A stretch of 64,000 bases of DNA from a virus (lineage: Duplodnaviria; Caudoviricetes), in IMG/VR virus record IMGVR_UViG_2595698455_000001, positions 64,001 through 128,000 of that record; one strand, 5' to 3'. Position 1 is the first letter of the stretch; the number at the start of each line of letters is the position of its first letter. Positions 22,741 to 45,971 of this stretch are shown here, one piece after another. The notes below the pieces were generated by a model. That model searched no databases. It was not told where the DNA came from and saw nothing but the letters and a program-made list of their open reading frames with translations. Made by a program: the position numbers and the translations under genes.

Positions 22741-23118
22741 ATGAAACAGTTCGTAGGATTATATGCGGTCGGATGCAGTAAGCCAGACGCCATCCTCACC
22801 GCAGGGCAGTTCGTTACAGGCACACCAGTCTACCTTGCTCAGCTGGCGTCAGACAAGAACTTACCATCGGAGCCACGATTTGTCCCTCTGGGTTTGATGA
22901 CAGGCCTGAAAGTTGGTCTGTATGTCGGTGTCGTGACGTTTGAAAACGGTATCGAAGCGAAGGTGCTGCCATTCAAATTGGGTAGCGAACAAATGCTGAA
23001 GGACACGATCAGTGAACACCTGAACGCACAGTGTCTGGCTTCTCTGGACAAATTGTTCGGTGCGGCGGACGAAGAAGGCGAGGCAACCCCCGCCTATGTG
23101 AACCAAGATCAATCGTGA
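22741..23118 (+). CDS. Hypothetical protein
   Basis: 125-aa ORF, GAGAG SD, divergent from gp45. Confidence 0.65.
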   Translation: MKQFVGLYAVGCSKPDAILTAGQFVTGTPVYLAQLASDKNLPSEPRFVPLGLMTGLKVGLYVGVVTFENGIEAKVLPFKLGSEQMLKDTISEHLNAQCLASLDKLFGAADEEGEATPAYVNQDQS

Positions 23119-23438
23119 TTACCCAGCGCCACCTTCATGAACTCCACGGGGTGGCGCTCCGTCAGGTAGAACTTGTAACGCTCATGAGAGTGCCTGATAG
23201 CGTGGTTCGTGCTTGCGTTGTACGACACATCATCCACTAAATCCCATATCCATGCGACGTCCTTAGAGGAGTGCTGACGCATCAGACGACCCAGTGTCTG
23301 TATGACGCGGATATACGACTTGCTCGGGTGCGCCAGAACAAGGTGATGCAGCTTCTTCCAAGATATCCCGGTGCTGAAAGTTCCGTATGTGGCAAGCACC
23401 GTGATATCTTCCGCCTTATTAATTTTAGTCGGTTTCAT
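23109..23438 (-). CDS. uvsW: UvsW helicase, C-terminal fragment
   Basis: EDITVLATYGTFSTGIS (motif V) and IQTLGRLMR (motif VI); ATG overlaps the HNH stop (ATGA) behind an AGGGGTAGG SD. Confidence 0.85.
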   Translation of the reverse strand: MKPTKINKAEDITVLATYGTFSTGISWKKLHHLVLAHPSKSYIRVIQTLGRLMRQHSSKDVAWIWDLVDDVSYNASTNHAIRHSHERYKFYLTERHPVEFMKVALGNHD

Positions 23439-24379
23439 TTCCTACCCCTGTTGGATGCTAGTTTTCCTTCTACCCACCCAACAGGAATTTCATTGGGGTG
23501 TATGAATTTACTATTTAAACCGTTGTTGTACCATCTCCAGCCTTGTGACAGTTTCAGGAGTTTTGTTTCTTCTCTCTTCTTTTTGATGTCTTCTTTATTC
23601 TCCCACATAGTTTTGCTGGCTTTACTTCTTGTTTCTTTGAACTCTGTGGTGGACATGGCCTCTTGTCTCTTAGTGTTCACCAGTTCCACATACTCTGGGT
23701 CTTTCCATAAATTTATCGCACGTTCTTTGTGTTTGGCAACGGTGACGCCAGTGGAATTGGACTCTCGCAAACCATTGATCATCCTTTCTCTAATTTCGGG
23801 GTCTTTCCAGTTTCCCTTGGATATTTGCGAGAAACGTTCCTTTGCTTCTGCCGTGTTGGCTCTCGCTATCAAAATAGACCTTAACTTTTCACCCACCTCC
23901 GTGTTCCACATACTCACAAAGAATTTTGACCAACGTCGGCGTTCATATGGGCTAGAACGTTTCTCCTTTGAAATGGAACCCATCATCTTCCTGTATTCCG
24001 GGTCCTCCCAAAGAGCTTTCATAAGAGAAGACTTTATTGCCCGGTTGTTCTGGATGGTTGTTTGGTCTTCATATCCAAACTCCGACATCAAGACATAAGC
24101 CATTACAGCCGCCCTTGTGCGTGTGGCTTTTGCCAATATCTTGTGAGCTATGAAATGTGCTCTTGGTGACAACAGTGCCAAGTTCCAGGTATGAATGCTT
24201 AGATTTTTGAATTGTGGAAAATCCTTCGCTTGGAGAATATGGTGACGTTCTTTTGTATCACCAACTGCCTGGAAATTTCGGACAAAATTGATATACCTGT
24301 TCACCCAAAATTCATCGGATTTTGGGAGCGCCAACAAGTATTCTCTGATCTTTTTGTCGTTGTTTAATCCAGTTGTCAT
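23435..24379 (-). mobile_element. HNH (MobE-like) homing endonuclease gene inserted within uvsW
   Basis: ERHHIL...NLALLSPRAHFIAHKIL; three WxDPE(Y/I) repeats; C-terminal WYNNG...IPVGWVEG; GAGGA SD. Confidence 0.85.
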
Positions 24380-25703
24380 CAACGTCGTCCTCTTCAGTTA
24401 CGAACATGGCTACTTTGGTTTCCCCATTCGACAACAGAACCTTTTCGTTGTCACCAACCATTATTGATATGTTACCAAACTCCAATGTTATTATCTTTTC
24501 CGACTCTATTAAACTACCTATCTTAAGTCTGTCTTCCACAGCGACATCCCCGTTGATGACAAACACATTGGGCTTGACAGCGCTCAGCATCTCATACACG
24601 ACCATCATGTGGGCGTCGATACGCTCGAACATGATCGCCACGTTCCCTTTCAGGTTAATAGCCATCTTGGCTATCAGTTCGTTGCGGGATTGGTGTGTGA
24701 TGAGATACTCTATTTCCTTGGCGTAATCCCCGTCCAGACCGACAGCATCCGCTGAAGTGTGCTTCAGCTGGATCATCTTCACCTTGATGTCGGTGGCATA
24801 CCCAAGGTTGATAAGGTCGCGAGCCGTGATGATCTTGTGGTACGCCCCGAAGTGGGCTACAACCTGCAGCCCTGCGACCTTCGTGTTTGCCAGAGTACCC
24901 GTAACGCCCAGACGCTGGTCGGCATAGATGCAGTTGTTCAGGATGTAGGACAGCTTCTCAGACTTGGAGGTGTGCACTTCATCCACCACGATATCACCGA
25001 ACTGGTGGAACCACTCCTTCGGCTGATCCTGAATCCCCTGCCACGTACTGATGACGATTGGCTTACTGATCTGTTTGGTCGCACCTTCAAAGATCAGCTG
25101 AGTATTGACAACAGGCTTCCAATCACTGCCATGTGCGTACTCTTCAAAGTTGTCGTACAGCTGAGTAACCAGGTGAATCGACGGCACCACGATAAGCGTC
25201 CTCAGATTGCTTTCGAGAGCTTCTCTGCGCTGCCTGTAGTACCGCGCCATGACGTACAGAACAAAGGACTTACCAGCACTCGTGGCCAGTTCACAGACGC
25301 ATCTGGTTTGGCGCATAGCCTTGGCGATCGTATCGAACTGGTAATCACGGGTTTCGGCGTCGATGTACTCGTGATTTTCGGTGCGGATCTTTGGATGCAG
25401 GCTGTTGATAAATTCACGGATCTCTTCATCAGGGATGTCCTGGATGTACTTCAGAGCCGGATCCAGTTCGATGGTGTATTTGTTGTTCTTACAGAACTTG
25501 AACACCTCGAACAGAAGTCCGATATCGATCAGGCCGGAAGATTTGGTGAACAAGCGAACAACCCCGTCCCATTTAGAGAAGGGGTTGGGAACGAAGTTTG
25601 GATCTTCAAATTTGAAGTAGTCATTCAGCTCTTCCCTGATAGAAAGATCTGCGATGCAACGCATGCGGACTTCGTTAACCTTAACAATCTGAATGTCTGC
25701 CAT
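24312..25703 (-). CDS. uvsW: UvsW helicase, N-terminal fragment with an intein-like C-terminal extension
   Basis: LATSAGKS, VDEVH, GVTGT, VFVINGDV; helicase similarity ends near 24500 and about 60 foreign residues follow. Confidence 0.9.
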   Translation of the reverse strand: MADIQIVKVNEVRMRCIADLSIREELNDYFKFEDPNFVPNPFSKWDGVVRLFTKSSGLIDIGLLFEVFKFCKNNKYTIELDPALKYIQDIPDEEIREFINSLHPKIRTENHEYIDAETRDYQFDTIAKAMRQTRCVCELATSAGKSFVLYVMARYYRQRREALESNLRTLIVVPSIHLVTQLYDNFEEYAHGSDWKPVVNTQLIFEGATKQISKPIVISTWQGIQDQPKEWFHQFGDIVVDEVHTSKSEKLSYILNNCIYADQRLGVTGTLANTKVAGLQVVAHFGAYHKIITARDLINLGYATDIKVKMIQLKHTSADAVGLDGDYAKEIEYLITHQSRNELIAKMAINLKGNVAIMFERIDAHMMVVYEMLSAVKPNVFVINGDVAVEDRLKIGSLIESEKIITLEFGNISIMVGDNEKVLLSNGETKVAMFVTEEDDVDDNWIKQRQKDQRILVGAPKIR

Positions 25704-25731
25704 ACAAAATCTCCCAAGATATATGGGATAT

Positions 25732-26478
25732 TTAGCGGTTCTCCCAGACTCCGTTCTGTTCTTTGTCCATTCGATGATACAGTCGAACGCGCTCAAACAT
25801 CTTTGTCAGGATGTCGTCACGATTGAACTCAATGACAGTGGGTAGAGGAGAAGACTCGTTGGCGATTACATTGATGAGGCGGGTGATCTTGACACCGAAC
25901 ATCTGCTGGAACATGACCGAATATAAGCACAGCTGGATACTGTAATCCTCGATCATTCCCCGCGTCTTCATGATGTTCGATGTCTTGAAGTCGATGATGG
26001 CAGGCTTGCCCTCATAAACCCCGATAAGGTCCACTCGACCTGCGAGACCAAGCACCTCGCTATATAATGGGATCTCCTGAGCATAGATCTTGGTCATCTT
26101 GTTCAGATAGGGGAACAGCTGCTTGAACATGAACATGTATTCGCCAGCCGCTTCCAAAACTTCTTTCATTGGGCGGTTCTTCAAATACAATTCACATGCA
26201 AGATGCAGCTTCTCCCCACGATCCGCGCAACGCATGGTCTCAAGGTCGGCGGCCTCCGTGCCCAGCTTCTCCCTCCAAGCATCAAGCCATTCATGGTCAC
26301 CAGTTCGCCCCAGCATAGTCGTGACAGACGTCAGCTTGACACCAGTTGGTGACACATAATGACGACCGTTCTCCGTCGTCACACACTCCAGTTCCTTATG
26401 AGGAAGTTCGTACTGCTGGAATGTGTAATGACGATTTTCGAAGTCGTTCAGCTTGCGTAGAGCCTGGAGAGATGCCAT
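25732..26478 (-). CDS. PD-(D/E)XK exonuclease
   Basis: SVTTML, RGEKLH, QEIPLYS...LAGRVDLI...IIDFKTS...QLCLY. Confidence 0.85.
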   Translation of the reverse strand: MASLQALRKLNDFENRHYTFQQYELPHKELECVTTENGRHYVSPTGVKLTSVTTMLGRTGDHEWLDAWREKLGTEAADLETMRCADRGEKLHLACELYLKNRPMKEVLEAAGEYMFMFKQLFPYLNKMTKIYAQEIPLYSEVLGLAGRVDLIGVYEGKPAIIDFKTSNIMKTRGMIEDYSIQLCLYSVMFQQMFGVKITRLINVIANESSPLPTVIEFNRDDILTKMFERVRLYHRMDKEQNGVWENR

Positions 26479-42895: not shown

Positions 42896-45097
42896 TCACC
42901 GTCCGAGCCATTCTTCCATGGACATGCCAGATCGTTCGTCATAAACCTGCACGCCACTAAATCCTGGCACATTCTCCACAGAGTGTGGATCAGGAGCCGA
43001 CAACACACCGCCGAAAGGCATCATCTGTGATTCTTCCATTGCAGACAAGCGGCCTCTCATGTCGACAGAGATACTGGAGTTGGTGAGGTCACTAAACCAT
43101 TCTTGTTTCACCGCCCATGCATACAGCACAAGAGGCATTACACAGTCATCATGACAACCATCATCGGCTTCATACCTTGTCCCAGTCCATACGAATGTAC
43201 TGAGTTCATCTATCGTGTCTTGGTCGTCAACAACCAGCATCTCCCTTTCGATCAGGGCTTTCAGGTTAGCACAGCCGTTTGTGCGTACCTTCTTGTTGGT
43301 GTTGATACCAGGTTCAGGACGCCGCCCACCGATTCGCTTACCAGTCCCCTTGGCGTCTGTGGTTGTGAATATGATCTCAGGATATTCAATTTCCTGATAG
43401 AGTATCATGATCACCTGACCGCCGACGTCGTTGTTGGTTTCAACCAGCATCGGACACGTGCCATACTTCTCGCCCATGTCTGCAATCGTGTATGCGTACA
43501 TCATCGGAGGTATCGTGTTGTTTCGATATTTGGCCGCGATCTTATGAGGGTACTCTGTGATGTCGATGATAGTCAACACCGAGTAGTCCCCCTCCACACC
43601 CTTGCCTGTATCCGCGATCCCCATGTAGATGTGCTTCGGATCGTAGTCGTGATAGATCTTGGTGAACTCGTTTGGCTCTTCGTAGAGCTTCGAGGTCATC
43701 TTGTCCAGACACTTGGCTGGGATAAGTGAACCGACCGACCCACGGAACTTGATGCCAAATTCCTGATCGAAGCGTGCATCCCCCAGCTTCGCCCTCTGTT
43801 TGGATTCCCAGTTTGGATCCTTGGTGTATGTTGGTACACGGTTCCATGGGACTTCGGTGAGATTGAAGTCGTTGTACTGAGGGTGCTCTGGATTCGCCTT
43901 GGTGACGATGTCGTAGAACAATCCGCGCTGACCTTTTGGTGTACTTGTCAGGATACAACGTGAAGTCTCTGCAGATGCAATTGCAGGGAATGTTGACTCC
44001 CAGAATTCAAAGTCGTTTTCAATGAACGCCACTTCGTCCACATACAGGAGCGATACAGATCGACCACGGATGGAGTCAGAGGATGTCGCATAAGCATAGA
44101 TCTTCGATCCGTTTTCGAACTCGATGAGCGTGGAGCCGAACTTCTCACAACCCTGCTGGAGGAAGAATGGCAAATCCTGGTATGCCTTGCGAATACGGTC
44201 CAGGATTTCAATCGCCTGCTTCTCTTTGTTCGCCAGTACTGCGATCTCTTTGTCGGAGTGGAACATTGCATACCAGAGAAGGAACGCCGCCACGACAGTC
44301 GTGTTATGACTGAGGAAGCCGTTGGTGTAGTAGCGCTGGTCACTGGATTTCACCTGTAGGTCATACATGTGGTGCATCTTACCAGTCTGCCAGACCTCAA
44401 CGACTTCTTCTAGACCTTCTTCGGTCATCAGCTGCGAACCAGCCACCAGATCCTTTGCGAACACTTCTTTCATGTTCTGATTGAAGAACATGTGATCATC
44501 GGCTACGTTGATACGACGACCACTGGAAGTGACGACAACATACTCTTGATACTGCTTGGTCTTGTGTGCTGCGATAACCGGAACCCAGCCGATATCACAG
44601 CGAACGAAATAACGCTTGCCGAAGCGGCTGTCTACGAACTTATCGTGTTTGCCAAAGGCATTCAGTGGCTCAGCGTGATTCGGTCCCTCGAAGCGGCTGT
44701 GAAGCTCCTCGATGGTGACTTTAAACTCTTCTTGGCTGACTGTGTCGTATACCTCAACGATACTGTCGCCTTTCACACACTTACCTGACTGACGCGCCTG
44801 GACAACAGCGTTGAAGCGGTGATCCTGGAAGTCATGGAACAACTGCTTCTGATAGTCGTGCATATCGAAGAGGATGAAGCCTTTATCGATGGTCGTGATC
44901 TTGTAGTAGTTGGCAGCGAAGTAATGAGCATCCATCGCGCATTCTACGAATTCGTCTTCTTGCTCATCCGTCAACATCAACTGAACACGAGGGGCGCGCA
45001 CAGACGGCTTGCGCATGAACGTTTGGTCCATACGCAATTTGACGTCTGGTATTTTAAAACCGGTTTTCTCTGGTGCCCAATCTATCTCATATGCCAT
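42896..45097 (-). CDS. 17: gp17 terminase large subunit containing a mini-intein
   Basis: RQSGK|TT Walker A split by the intein; LYVDEVAF, TSTPKG, HDDCVM. Confidence 0.95.
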   Translation of the reverse strand: MAYEIDWAPEKTGFKIPDVKLRMDQTFMRKPSVRAPRVQLMLTDEQEDEFVECAMDAHYFAANYYKITTIDKGFILFDMHDYQKQLFHDFQDHRFNAVVQARQSGKCVKGDSIVEVYDTVSQEEFKVTIEELHSRFEGPNHAEPLNAFGKHDKFVDSRFGKRYFVRCDIGWVPVIAAHKTKQYQEYVVVTSSGRRINVADDHMFFNQNMKEVFAKDLVAGSQLMTEEGLEEVVEVWQTGKMHHMYDLQVKSSDQRYYTNGFLSHNTTVVAAFLLWYAMFHSDKEIAVLANKEKQAIEILDRIRKAYQDLPFFLQQGCEKFGSTLIEFENGSKIYAYATSSDSIRGRSVSLLYVDEVAFIENDFEFWESTFPAIASAETSRCILTSTPKGQRGLFYDIVTKANPEHPQYNDFNLTEVPWNRVPTYTKDPNWESKQRAKLGDARFDQEFGIKFRGSVGSLIPAKCLDKMTSKLYEEPNEFTKIYHDYDPKHIYMGIADTGKGVEGDYSVLTIIDITEYPHKIAAKYRNNTIPPMMYAYTIADMGEKYGTCPMLVETNNDVGGQVIMILYQEIEYPEIIFTTTDAKGTGKRIGGRRPEPGINTNKKVRTNGCANLKALIEREMLVVDDQDTIDELSTFVWTGTRYEADDGCHDDCVMPLVLYAWAVKQEWFSDLTNSSISVDMRGRLSAMEESQMMPFGGVLSAPDPHSVENVPGFSGVQVYDERSGMSMEEWLGR
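44303..44779 (-). mobile_element. Mini-intein (159 aa, no endonuclease domain) in the terminase Walker A
   Basis: Starts CVKGDSIV; block B INVADDH; block F MYDLQV; ends GFLSHN followed by Thr+1. Confidence 0.92.
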
Positions 45098-45971
45098 GAT
45101 GACTTCTCCACTCTAGCCATTTAGGACATACGGAAGGAACCCAACCATTCTGGAATCTTTTGGTTATGGGTTGTATAGAATTTATTTTTTTATAACGTTC
45201 ATCACCAAATACTTGACGACAAAGACAAATCCCCGTTACCCCATTCCTCCATGCTTCGTATATCAGATCGGATTTCAGATAGAAAGGAATATTTTGTTCG
45301 TTAAATCTGTTCATTTCCCAAGGCATCAAACTAGATTTCCTTTCTCTCATGAGTTTCTTACTTTCTTCGGAATGGGTTCTTCCATAGAAAGGATTCAACT
45401 CTCCGGTATTCTGACTGGAATTGGATGCAGAAATTTTGTCTCGCGTTTCTTGAGAAACAACAGCGCCAGAACGAGGGTGCCCTCTTTCTTTCCATGTTTT
45501 CTTCAACGATACCGAAGATTTTAATCTCTGCTCTGCACTGATTACCAGCCCCTTATTTCTTTCGGAAAGTTTCTTCCTGGTACTTTCCCTAAACATAGGG
45601 TTATCTACCTTCATCCTTTCAGATGTCAGTACAGACAATTCAGAATAGAATGCAATTTTCGATTCTTGGTATAATCTGGAAGTACGAATAATCCCATTCG
45701 AGTTTCGCATGCAATTAAAGGCGAACAACATTTCTCTCGTTTTGGTTATTTTCCAAAGCAACAGATGACATACGAAATGCGCTTTGGATGATAATCGGAT
45801 AAGATTTTTTGGATCTTCTCTGAAGGACGGATACAAAGATTTTGGAAGAATATGGTGAACTTCTCCCTGGTCGTTCACCACACCCTTCGCTAAAACCTTA
45901 ACATATCTATTGATAAGTGTATCCTCGGGATAATCTCTCCTGAGGATATCAATTAGATTCTGATACGCCAT
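45087..45971 (-). mobile_element. Free-standing HNH (MobE-like) homing endonuclease gene between gp16 and gp17
   Basis: EVHHILPKS...NLIRLSSKAHFVCHLLL; NUMOD3-like GELNPFYGRTHSEESK; overlaps both neighbours. Confidence 0.85.

Follow-up and report, generated by a model that had tools for sequence, protein, structure and literature searches.

The uvsW helicase gene of this Agtrevirus-like phage, which is of a cultivable enterobacterial lineage, lies in the window (the whole 64,000-nucleotide stretch analyzed) as three packed minus-strand open reading frames (ORFs): an N-fragment, a predicted HNH endonuclease, and a C-fragment. We propose with fair confidence that the gene was split by a mobile cassette of ~1.19 kb (~24543-23357) spread by its HNH enzyme, and that UvsW acts as two polypeptides aided by an intein-derived C-terminal extension (CTE) of the N-fragment. 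Some near-identical phages carry the cassette and others lack it. As judged from its conservation, the extra ~49 residues of the N-fragment are a protein module and not read-through. The split uvsW with its tails belongs to a large conserved cassette family rather than being a one-off decay product, a point absent from the initial annotation of this DNA.

That annotation had described uvsW as lying in two ORFs with an HNH gene tightly packed between them, which the ORF list and the sequence bear out, and the peptides that it quoted match the sequence (Table 1). The first 68 nt of the middle ORF overlap the N-fragment ORF, so that its start lies inside the latter; the ORF listing opens it one codon upstream of the ATG, at TTG 24382. 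The ATG of the C-fragment overlaps the stop of the HNH ORF in an ATGA, and there are zero noncoding bases between the three ORFs. Together, the two fragments are colinear with the intact 502-aa alleles of a UvsW-type SF2 helicase. The N-fragment matches Pfam ResIII (6e-17), DEAD (9.8e-12), and UvsW_N (1.8e-7) as well as the T4 UvsW structure 2OCA (E=6.4e-48). The C-fragment is matched over its full length by phrog_17901 'DNA helicase' (1e-77) and further by phrog_9690, phrog_16, and, only below its cut-off, Helicase_C; tblastn puts the identity of its helicase part to intact alleles at 89%. An mRNA hairpin whose loop contains the motif V codons TAC GGA ACT TTC (MFE, -27.8 kcal/mol; z, -2.17; 5 of 200 shuffles fold equally well) also turned up as a chance miRNA match in the Rfam scan.

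Table 1. Features of the split uvsW locus (positions in the window)
Feature	Position	Strand	Basis or details
N-fragment ORF, 463 aa	25703-24312	-	ATG 25703; stop TGA 24314-24312
Helicase part of N-fragment (residues 1-400: N-terminal domain, RecA1, first half of RecA2)	24504-25703	-	Pfam, 2OCA, intact alleles
Diverged N-side exon flank	24504-24543	-	EspM4VN identity ends at 24544; insert-free contig rejoins at 24547
CTE module (residues 401-449), predicted Hint-like small beta domain, no catalytic residues	24357-24503	-	Conservation, codons, AF2, VIA
Window-lineage tail of N-fragment (residues 450-463 plus stop)	24312-24356	-	In 5' end of HNH ORF, other frame
Middle ORF, 314 aa	24379-23435	-	ATG 24379; stop 23437-23435
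Predicted HNH-type homing endonuclease gene, free-standing; WxDPE(Y/I) helices recur in its C-terminal half	23435-24379	-	PHROG families
C-fragment ORF, 109 aa	23438-23109	-	ATG 23438-23436; stop 23111-23109
Start codon and 9-residue leader MKPTKINKA of C-fragment	23412-23438	-	Sequence
Diverged C-side exon flank	23357-23411	-	Insert-free contig and EspM4VN alignment
mRNA hairpin, 8+7-bp stem, 21-nt loop	23360-23410	-	RNA folding of the strand
Helicase part of C-fragment (strand before motif V, motifs V and VI, C-terminus)	23109-23411	-	phrog_17901, phrog_9690, alignment

The limits of the insertion come from close relatives. In the alignment to uninterrupted alleles that the initial annotation had proposed, uvsW is one whole gene in EspM4VN, CAU_YEP3, and SW16-7; these intact-gene relatives are ~90% identical, and the intact gene also occurs in the sister phages Ag3, SKML-39, and others. 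None of the 171 phage records matching the region reached a coverage of 80%. In the window, ~1.19 kb of lower-GC DNA (G+C of 0.34 to 0.48 versus 0.49 to 0.58 in the flanks) stands in place of 103 nt. High identity to EspM4VN stops at 24544 and returns near 23357, with an identical 11-nt GAAGATATCAC at 23411-23401 inside the diverged stretch. A public contig of 152,906 nt is insert-free and joins 23357 to 24547 via 103 other letters, and a second one (26,265 nt) continues through the insert. The N-side flank is probably donor derived and was brought along with the cassette, and the C-side flank encodes ITVLATYGTFSTGISW where relatives have ITLLASYGTMQQGVSI. As in MobA/MobE-type systems, a free-standing homing endonuclease gene interrupts a gene that close relatives have whole, and the order of the parts is also like that of MobA/MobE: a diverged flank, the in-frame CTE, the HNH gene, a start codon with the N-terminal extension (NTE) MKPTKINKA, and a second diverged flank. 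The presence or absence of the cassette and its diverged flanks are consistent with homing.

The middle ORF matches PHROG families of HNH or homing endonucleases (phrog_10820, 3.7e-108; phrog_655, 2.6e-13; phrog_12434, 2.8e-10), from which the HNH assignment is taken, the Pfam search having given no HNH family match; an HH...N...H...H pattern at residues 46 to 79 was spotted by eye only. This endonuclease is homologous to same-slot ORFs of other cassette members (23 to 39% identity), and the phage, IMG/VR, and JGI collections held no close relative of it. Across relatives, the slot contains HNH-like ORFs, GIY-YIG ORFs, other ORFs, or nothing, and a Pfam scan of 28 slot ORFs found SegE_GIY-YIG in 6 and GIY-YIG in 3. 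Many relatives, but not the window, carry tiny frame-breaking gaps of 1 to 11 nt at the likely target of the endonuclease. Their frame breaks fall in two different places, correlating with endonuclease type, and many relatives have the leader frame interrupted immediately ahead of motif V.

The CTE is under purifying selection. All 90 IMG/VR pattern matches carry the module (each at E<=2e-14 against the module HMM), none of these 90 copies has an in-frame stop within it, and codon entropy is 1.01, 0.83, and 1.40 at codon positions 1, 2, and 3, the third being the most variable. Between the window and phage K361, the module is 47% identical (23/49) and the helicase body 38% (152/397); close relatives show somewhat faster change in the module (2 to 7 of 49 positions) than in the body (14 to 18 of 400). 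Its invariant positions are L, G, K, T, D, D, and W. A search of 1.84 billion representative proteins returned 12 matches, 8 of which are the module at the C-terminus of helicase pieces. The module was also found in 58 Vibrio phage records, where the two uvsW ORFs abut with no endonuclease between them. On the other side of the break, the M-K-P of the leader is invariant in 17/17 aligned C-fragments and likewise in K361 and K469. Both tails of the cassette are conserved and persist even in members that lack the endonuclease. K361 and K469 do not have the last 14 N-fragment residues, their ORF ending 4 codons past the WI motif, and among close relatives these residues differ at 2 to 3 positions.

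The module is predicted to adopt a partial Hint (intein) fold corresponding to about half of an N-intein. AlphaFold (AF2) modeled it alone with a pLDDT of 92.4, and the same strands recur inside a 180-residue model of the N-part, in which residues 172 to 180, within the window-lineage tail, have a pLDDT of <50. With the predicted model of 53 residues as the query, a VIA-align search of 48,161 chains gave 37 chains at Z>=2, of which 29, including all of the top 27, are Hint folds (inteins or other Hint domains); the best match has a Z of 5.3, which is below the tool's own safe level, and an rmsd of 3.3 over 49 to 52 residues. The module aligns to residues 48 to 98 of the Npu DnaE N-intein chain 4lx3_A, i.e., the second half of the N-intein, which we take to be the region holding block B. 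The initial annotation had called the tail Hint-like but noncatalytic and likened it to the block-B region, and both descriptions agree with these models. Its proposed block-A echo in SLIESEKIITLEFG does not, since the fold match puts that strand in the second half of the N-intein and not at its start, and the likeness to the terminase intein of the window was not borne out by hhalign (probability of 0.09%). The comparison with Hint domains that it had suggested is favored by the VIA-align ranking but not by Foldseek significance: among Foldseek matches with at least 39 aligned columns, inteins have the top TM (0.61 to 0.66) and the lowest rmsd (1.4 to 2.5), and no Foldseek match of any kind reaches E<=0.001. 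ESM Atlas neighbors of the module include Hint families, and Pfam Hom_end_hint matches 1 of 42 module members at E=0.0036, a marginal result close to the chance expectation of 0.15 such matches. The Pfam search of the window's own tail gave no match, to a Hint family or otherwise, nor did the module profile match any PDB sequence. A weak structural match of the module to the T4 topoisomerase chain 8yo3_C (Foldseek E=1.3; VIA Z of 2.1) is the sole link to that enzyme that emerged.

N-inteins are marked by a Cys, Ser, or Thr (or a class-specific equivalent) at position 1 and a block-B Thr-x-x-His, and C-inteins by blocks F and G, a terminal Asn, and a +1 nucleophile. The module has neither a conserved Cys/Ser/Thr at its start nor a conserved His, and splicing is unlikely because no catalytic residue is conserved in it. 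As noted initially, the C-fragment starts without block F/G or a terminal Asn: its leader has only 9 residues, therefore no room for these blocks, and helicase sequence follows directly, with no conserved adjoining +1 Cys/Ser/Thr. Going by the fold models, the tail probably helps the UvsW pieces to assemble and does not splice them.

We propose that UvsW would be made as two polypeptides, the C-fragment being translationally coupled to the HNH ORF via the ATGA, and that these would reconstitute the interrupted RecA2 domain noncovalently. Docking or activity would be aided by the intein-derived CTE and perhaps also by the MKP leader, which is invariant, and in coinfections the HNH enzyme would spread the cassette as a unit to uvsW alleles that are still intact. 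Nevertheless, a docking clasp may be the wrong function for the CTE, because the Aeh1 NrdA halves are described as binding each other without tails (PMC3045599). The tails could instead be needed for UvsW activity by repairing what the split had damaged, be it an interface, an oligomeric state, or contact with a partner, which we regard as unlikely, though deserving attention. It would follow the Aeh1 precedent, in which, according to the parts of that paper used here, tail-less NrdA-a and NrdA-b still form a heterodimer but dimerization and activity are lost (PMC3045599), and the module is predicted to fold as a self-contained domain without the C-fragment. However, the present results fit a clasp equally well, and intein ancestry speaks for a role in pairing, given that the two halves of a split intein associate (PMC3045599).

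A self-splicing intron, of group I or another type, that removes the interval to give one mRNA and one UvsW, with the extension and the MKP leader incidental, is very improbable. The U/G boundaries of the initial annotation would give an in-frame junction, and such splicing would render the leader-frame breaks of the relatives harmless, but one fixed 3' splice site leaves unexplained why these breaks lie at two endonuclease-type-linked places. In the proposed covariance scan, Rfam 15 over 22900-25900 returned at E<=10 only the chance miRNA match, with no intron family or core, and no intron family reached the gathering score in 14 related loci. Moreover, the interval in the Vibrio phages is only ~200 nt, all coding, the extension evolves as protein, and M-K-P with its ATG is invariant. 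Just as little credence goes to the insertion having inactivated uvsW, with the tails as meaningless read-through and the fragments decaying. The final 14 N-fragment residues do look incidental, but both fragments remain intact, with sequences near those of functional alleles, the 463-aa N-fragment is retained in at least 7 further variants and the 109-aa C-fragment in 2, the module and the leader are conserved in hosts as distant as Vibrio, and the C-parts of relatives show many synonymous-only differences. That tail and leader still trans-splice the helicase halves by unusual chemistry is hardly credible: the predicted partial Hint fold would suit it, and in some relatives the same helicase has a canonical split intein elsewhere (P0015 begins with a Pfam Intein_splicing C-terminal match), but the module is only about half an N-intein with no conserved starting nucleophile or block-B His, the leader offers no terminal Asn or conserved +1 residue, and Pfam detects the true intein piece in P0015 and nothing in the module.

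A full-text literature search found no paper on an endonuclease-split uvsW with a half-intein tail. The closest known systems to the two-polypeptide cassette that we favor are the T4 MobA and Aeh1 MobE split-gene cassettes with tails. In the sections of the source considered here, the T4-type MobA element comprises gene 39, mobA, and gene 60 with CTE, NTE, a divergent homology region, and a 50-nt bypass, and the MobA-split topoisomerase always has conserved CTE and NTE tails (Manning & Atkins, bioRxiv 10.1101/2022.08.31.505936). As with MobA so described, a free-standing endonuclease cassette splits an essential DNA metabolism gene at one fixed site, with conserved C- and N-terminal extensions and diverged flanks, and both split and tails persist when the endonuclease is lost or gives way to one of an unrelated family. 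A small coding gap adjoins the presumed endonuclease site in the window's relatives only, and measures 1 to 11 nt versus 50 nt in MobA. The host gene differs (uvsW versus topoisomerase), the window has no coding gap, and the uvsW CTE has a predicted partial Hint fold, whereas those sections of the MobA paper report none for its tails.

As in Aeh1 nrdA-a/mobE/nrdA-b, the disrupted gene encodes an enzyme, is uninterrupted in relatives, and has been split by an endonuclease assigned to the HNH (Mob) type (PMC3045599, PMC2988022), lower-GC tails stand on both new ends, and the endonuclease ORF overlaps the downstream fragment. From the portions of these papers drawn on, Aeh1 has neither RNA nor protein splicing, as is predicted for uvsW, and the tails of its split NrdA are essential for activity, with a degenerate intein origin suggested by the authors (Crona et al. 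2011, PMC3045599). Unlike the Aeh1 tails, a single case without a database match there, the uvsW tail recurs as a module throughout its family and has a confidently predicted fold; the function of the former was shown experimentally, whereas the uvsW case is known from sequence and models. The order of an N-fragment with an intein-like end, an endonuclease, and a C-fragment is also that of the fractured genes of Dassa et al. (2009, PMC2677866), likewise phage DNA metabolism genes with, in the passages used, a slot attracting endonucleases. Their inteins are complete and reported to splice, unlike the approximately half N-intein seen here, which has no recognizable C-intein or catalytic residue; the text of PMC2677866 has 0 occurrences of UvsW. 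Finally, T4 SegE is listed as a free-standing GIY-YIG endonuclease beside uvsW and targeting it (table of PMC2988022), making uvsW a known homing target, in keeping with the 6 slot ORFs of relatives that match Pfam SegE_GIY-YIG. SegE as listed is intergenic and leaves uvsW unsplit, unlike the HNH-type enzyme of the window.

More tentatively, and with the odds somewhat against it, the uvsW cassette might represent a widespread third way, besides introns and inteins, for a homing endonuclease to reside within an essential gene, with a splicing-dead half-intein kept for docking. The gaps of the relatives would then shield the target and be crossed by +1 slippage or short stop-hops, as counterparts of the gene 60 bypass, the window being the gap-free state. 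If translated through, these frame-breaking gaps would add to the very few natural cases of translational bypass. The cassette-free sister phages (EspM4VN, Ag3, SKML-39) and the cultured, endonuclease-less split Vibrio phages make the case testable. Split-protein design could make use of a docking pair that is small, orthogonal, and able to fold by itself. If the module truly docks the halves, an intein can decay into a noncatalytic assembly domain, and this would give a structural answer to how endonuclease-split enzymes are reassembled, a question open since the work on Aeh1 NrdA and T4 topoisomerase.

The uvsW gene of the window lies in two ORFs with an endonuclease gene in the slot between them (Table), and the initial annotation, which had described this tightly packed arrangement, agrees with both the ORF listing and the sequence: the middle ORF starts inside the N-fragment ORF by 68 nt, and its stop shares ATGA with the C-fragment ATG. 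The N-fragment is the N-terminal four-fifths of the UvsW helicase (Pfam ResIII, 6e-17; DEAD, 9.8e-12; UvsW_N, 1.8e-7) and matches the T4 UvsW structure 2OCA in phmmer (E=6.4e-48), while the C-fragment is the rest, matching phrog_17901 across its entire length (1e-77) and phrog_9690 (8.5e-31). PHROGs assigns the middle ORF to HNH or homing endonuclease families (phrog_10820, 3.7e-108; phrog_655, 2.6e-13; phrog_12434, 2.8e-10), and none of the Pfam HNH models matched it. The break falls within the RecA2 domain, just 5' of the strand leading into motif V.

Table. Coordinates of the split uvsW locus, of other features of the window, and of related loci (L-numbers, IMG/VR records and Vibrio phages)
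Feature	Coordinates	Strand	Basis or remark
uvsW N-fragment ORF, 463 aa	ATG 25703, stop 24314-24312	-	ORF listing and sequence
Predicted Hint-like module	24357-24503	-	N-fragment residues 401-449
HNH or homing endonuclease ORF, 314 aa	ATG 24379, stop 23437-23435	-	PHROG matches
C-terminal half of the HNH ORF	23435-24100		WxDPE(Y/I)-type helix repeats
uvsW C-fragment ORF, 109 aa	ATG 23438, stop 23111-23109	-	PHROG matches
mRNA hairpin, 8+7 bp	23360-23410	-	z -2.17
Mini-intein, 159 residues	44303-44779	-	in large terminase ORF (42899-45112)
Split uvsW, Vibrio phage K361	L006:1146-2908
Split uvsW, Vibrio phage K469	L009:1807-3563
Slot ORFs, 262-284 aa	L028:1193-1978, L030:5585-6403, L086:3316-4167		N-termini alike by eye
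Slot ORF, 385 aa	L022:7012-8166
Loci with 1, 4, 6, 7 or 11-nt insertions	L012, L014, L016, L021, L023, L025, L027, L028, L033, L034, L036, L039, L041, L046, L055, L056, L061, L064, L065, L067, L070, L081, L083, L084, L089

The uvsW region is 89-93% identical to that of Agtrevirus-type Ackermannviridae (EspM4VN, Ag3, SKML-39, and MK-13, among others), with matches that are always two-piece and cover 58-60% of the query; none of the 171 records covers at least 80% of it. Alignment to uninterrupted uvsW alleles showed the relatives whole and the window split, a single uninterrupted gene being present in all three relatives inspected. Against EspM4VN, high identity ends at 24544 and returns near 23357, with 11 identical nt at 23411-23401, and a public contig of 152,906 nt joins 23357 to 24547 via 103 other letters. 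Thus, ~1.19 kb substitutes for 103 nt. The replaced stretch includes diverged helicase coding flanks of ~40 nt and ~55 nt that are unlike the resident type, motif V reading GTFSTGIS in the window versus GTMQQGVS in the relatives, and the G+C content of the insert is 0.34-0.48 versus 0.49-0.58 in its flanks. As judged from the sequence, such a low-G+C replacement with donor flanks is characteristic of homing cassettes. The insert is also present in a 26,265-nt contig from a different run. Distant-mode blastn found no close relatives of the insert in the phage collection, and the HNH protein search retrieved distant relatives only (22 phage records, all below 60% identity, together with one IMG/VR locus and one JGI metagenome locus, both distant).

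The extension at the end of the N-fragment is shared well beyond the window. Seven other 463-aa N-fragments from public assemblies carry it, 86-93% identical over query residues 395-463 (eight matches among 19 candidates, one being the window's own cluster). In Vibrio phage K361, found by tblastn with the C-fragment, uvsW is split at the same place and the two ORFs abut via ATGA without an endonuclease, an arrangement repeated in K469. Identity to the window is 23/49 in the module versus 152/397 in the helicase body for K361 and 20/47 versus 158/395 for K469; both C-fragments begin MKPTK, and the module was found in 58 Vibrio phage records. K361 and K469 are cultured phages and well suited to clean tests of the tails. 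An exhaustive phmmer search of 1.84 billion representative proteins with the 67-residue tail gave 12 matches at E<=0.001, namely one self-like fragment, three repeat proteins, and eight helicase pieces that all end in the module, four full-length ones among them with Pfam UvsW_N. The long repeat proteins (P0010-P0012, of which P0010 and P0012 were inspected) owe their scores to sums over 9-10 short stretches and were set aside as compositional.

The seven invariant residues served to design a degenerate DNA pattern, with which 90 stretches were recovered from IMG/VR, encoding 51 distinct peptides; all 90 reach a stop within ~20 codons and match the module HMM at E<=2e-14, a score that rests on the remaining positions, the seven residues being fixed by construction. 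Among these IMG/VR peptides, mean column entropy at codon positions 1/2/3 of the module is 1.01/0.83/1.40, and the maximum at position 3 argues that the module is coding sequence under purifying selection. In the window, the module is confined to N-fragment residues 401-449; the 14 residues that follow lie over the HNH ORF, are missing from the Vibrio phages, and are modeled with pLDDT below 50. The uvsW copy of the module is the only one in the phage's own genome.

From a 42-sequence alignment, AlphaFold2 predicted for the 53-residue module four strands (residues 8-13, 16-21, 25-28, and 33-35) and a helix (47-52), with a mean pLDDT of 92.4 and a pTM of 0.69, and these elements recur in a 180-residue model that combines the RecA2 N-half with the tail (pLDDT 85.7). 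The proposed likeness to Hint domains held in part in Foldseek: no PDB match reached E<=0.001, but among rows with at least 39 aligned columns the best TM scores (0.61-0.66) and lowest rmsd values (1.4-2.5) belong to inteins (RecA, VidaL, and Ssp SICLOPPS), with weaker intein rows for MchDnaB-1, Ssp DnaB, and NrdJ-1. VIA-align, which is independent of Foldseek, compared the module model with 48,161 chains and returned 37 with Z>=2, 29 of them Hint folds, the top 27 all being inteins or other Hint domains. PI-PfuI and Npu DnaE lead its list, aligned over 49-52 residues with Z 5.3 and rmsd 3.3. In the Npu DnaE N-intein chain the module covers residues 48-98 of 101, the second half of the N-intein, and the match ends near what we take to be the canonical split and endonuclease-insertion point. 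Feature neighbors in the ESM Atlas, at 0.78-0.84 and to be read as leads only, include Hint-type Pfam families in five of the nine matches listed, and Pfam Hom_end_hint matched one of the 42 module sequences (E=0.0036). On the window tail Pfam gave only Amidase_5 (E=0.16), and neither the tail (phmmer) nor the module profile had any match at E<=10 among PDB sequences. The resemblance that the initial annotation saw to the terminase intein of the window was not recovered by hhalign with the module profile (probability 0.09%). That mini-intein has Cys at position 1 and a His-Asn end followed by Thr. The lowest-E Foldseek row was the central domain of T4 topoisomerase II (8yo3 chain C, residues 476-535), a classic MobA-split protein with tails, which we considered too weak as a structural relative (E=1.3, rmsd 7.8, VIA-align Z 2.1). 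Modest Z scores, a small model, and uniformly negative sequence-profile tests speak against a relationship of the module to the Hint fold, which altogether we regard as probable.

An intein-like fold raises the question of protein splicing. Seven module positions are invariant (L, G, K, T, D, D, and W) and an F is nearly so; no nucleophile is conserved at the module start among the aligned sequences, nor is there a His at the position that we take to be block B. Across 17 C-fragments, M-K-P alone is invariant in the leader, which has nine residues in the window (MKPTKINKA), and none shows Asn or a nucleophile pair after it. The extension had indeed been described as devoid of the catalytic His and the C-fragment start as devoid of a terminal Asn. 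Because the module lacks a conserved nucleophile or His and the leader lacks Asn or a nucleophile pair, splicing of the UvsW protein is unlikely. Elsewhere in the helicase, a canonical split intein seems to cause a second fracture in the phages encoding P0015 and P0019, two of the tail matches, since the P0015 N-terminus has a C-terminal Pfam Intein_splicing match (E=2.6e-4, below the family cut-off) and that of P0019, for which Pfam gave no match, resembles it by eye. N-fragment ORFs of 254-267 aa in loci such as L021, L022, and L036 lead us to suspect a second cut further upstream there, as in P0015 and P0019.

Group I RNA splicing, offered initially as the alternative, is not supported: no intron family was found over 22900-25900 (Rfam 15, permissive filters, E<=10), the sole match being a chance miRNA (15.2 bits versus a gathering score of 60), and 14 related loci gave nothing at the gathering score. 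As the C-fragment has its own start and the extension is under protein-level selection, we consider RNA splicing of uvsW excluded by argument. A decayed duplicate of the post-break helicase segment, suggested by a phmmer alignment running on to 2OCA residue 427 and by some residues lined up in MAFFT, was rejected as alignment over-extension because local alignment of the extension to the window C-fragment and to the intact C-part scored 19, below the shuffle means of 21.9 and 22.8 (84% and 89% of 2,000 shuffles scoring as well), and because AlphaFold2 places the IITLEF strand within the small domain of the extension.

The interval between N-fragment stop and C-fragment start in relatives ranges from -1 to ~2,000 nt. 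Some slot ORFs are homologous to the window HNH (23-39% identity); others are GIY-YIG enzymes (among 28 ORFs scanned, Pfam SegE_GIY-YIG in six and GIY-YIG in three), and elsewhere the slot holds two further ORF types without family or is empty. The slot ORFs of L028, L030, L086, and L022, for which motif check and family tally gave no nuclease family or motif, may be further endonuclease types. The GIY-YIG-like slot ORFs of L039, L041, L055, and L070 have C-terminal parts that align with the helix repeats of the window HNH ORF; DNA-binding modules seem common to unrelated nuclease folds.

While the window itself is uninterrupted, the frame of the leader is broken within the motif V coding site in many IMG/VR members, either by 4, 6, 7, or 11 extra nt directly after the ASY codons, always starting TGA or TAG, or by one additional T or C after GTF. 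At 45 distinct junctions, classed by motif regexes except for five that were assigned by eye on the printed sequence, the break position goes with the endonuclease type: 13 of 16 junctions with an HNH-like ORF are broken, all after ASY; 11 of 14 with a GIY-YIG-like ORF, 10 of them after GTF; four of 11 with an empty slot, after ASY; and one of four with other ORF types, after ASY (by eye). Reassignment of the in-frame stops was dismissed, as long ORFs of these loci terminate at TAG and TGA. The C-part 3' of the break is open to its natural stop, and same-break pairs differ mostly synonymously (synonymous/non-synonymous, 32/12 for L021 versus L061, 19/0 for L061 versus L064, and 34/16 for L046 versus L083), which argues that it is translated in the shifted frame under purifying selection. 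The gaps may be sites of +1 slippage or short stop-hops, by programmed frameshift or bypass, that also disrupt the target of the resident endonuclease, and may thereby confer immunity on the target site. Short stop-hops have been seen in synthetic constructs, according to the available text of PMC5009743, and T4 gene 60, whose bypass protects against MobA nicking in the available preprint text (bioRxiv 10.1101/2022.08.31.505936), would provide a parallel to these gaps of the relatives. The window hairpin, with TAC GGA ACT TTC codons in its loop, occupies the same spot as the frame-breaking insertions, and EspM4VN has a shorter, 7-bp inverted repeat there (by eye, printed sequence).

MobA and bypass as one mobile cassette were reportedly first demonstrated in work cited in the preprint of Manning and Atkins. 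In the topoisomerase genes, conserved C- and N-terminal tails persist while MobA is swapped for GIY-YIG or VSR enzymes or lost, as told in the available text (bioRxiv 10.1101/2022.08.31.505936), which is the same behavior of constant tails and exchangeable endonuclease as in the uvsW cassette. A full-text literature search of main texts found no publication describing a uvsW gene that is split and bears intein-like tails and no paper combining "uvsW" and "split intein"; UvsW is absent from the available text of Dassa et al. 2009 (PMC2677866) on fractured genes.

We propose a model that builds on the anatomy, mobility signature, conservation, and predicted fold shown above, and whose further steps we infer. 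All three ORFs would be read from one transcript, no promoter- or terminator-like excess being found (two and one sites over 22900-25900, at or below shuffle expectation), and C-fragment translation would be coupled to that of the HNH ORF. RecA2 would then be reconstituted from the two chains, with the putatively intein-derived module helping them to assemble and the MKP leader perhaps contributing a further strand. Docking by the module is the weakest link of this model, since the available text on Aeh1 NrdA (PMC3045599), whose authors proposed a degenerate intein origin for its tails, reports these as essential for activity but not required for binding of the two halves. In co-infecting relatives, the HNH enzyme would cut intact uvsW, whereupon the whole cassette and its flanks would be copied in. 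We class the window locus as a case of endonuclease split-gene cassettes with tails, and the comparison of slots argues that module and leader are its constant parts and the endonuclease an exchangeable passenger.
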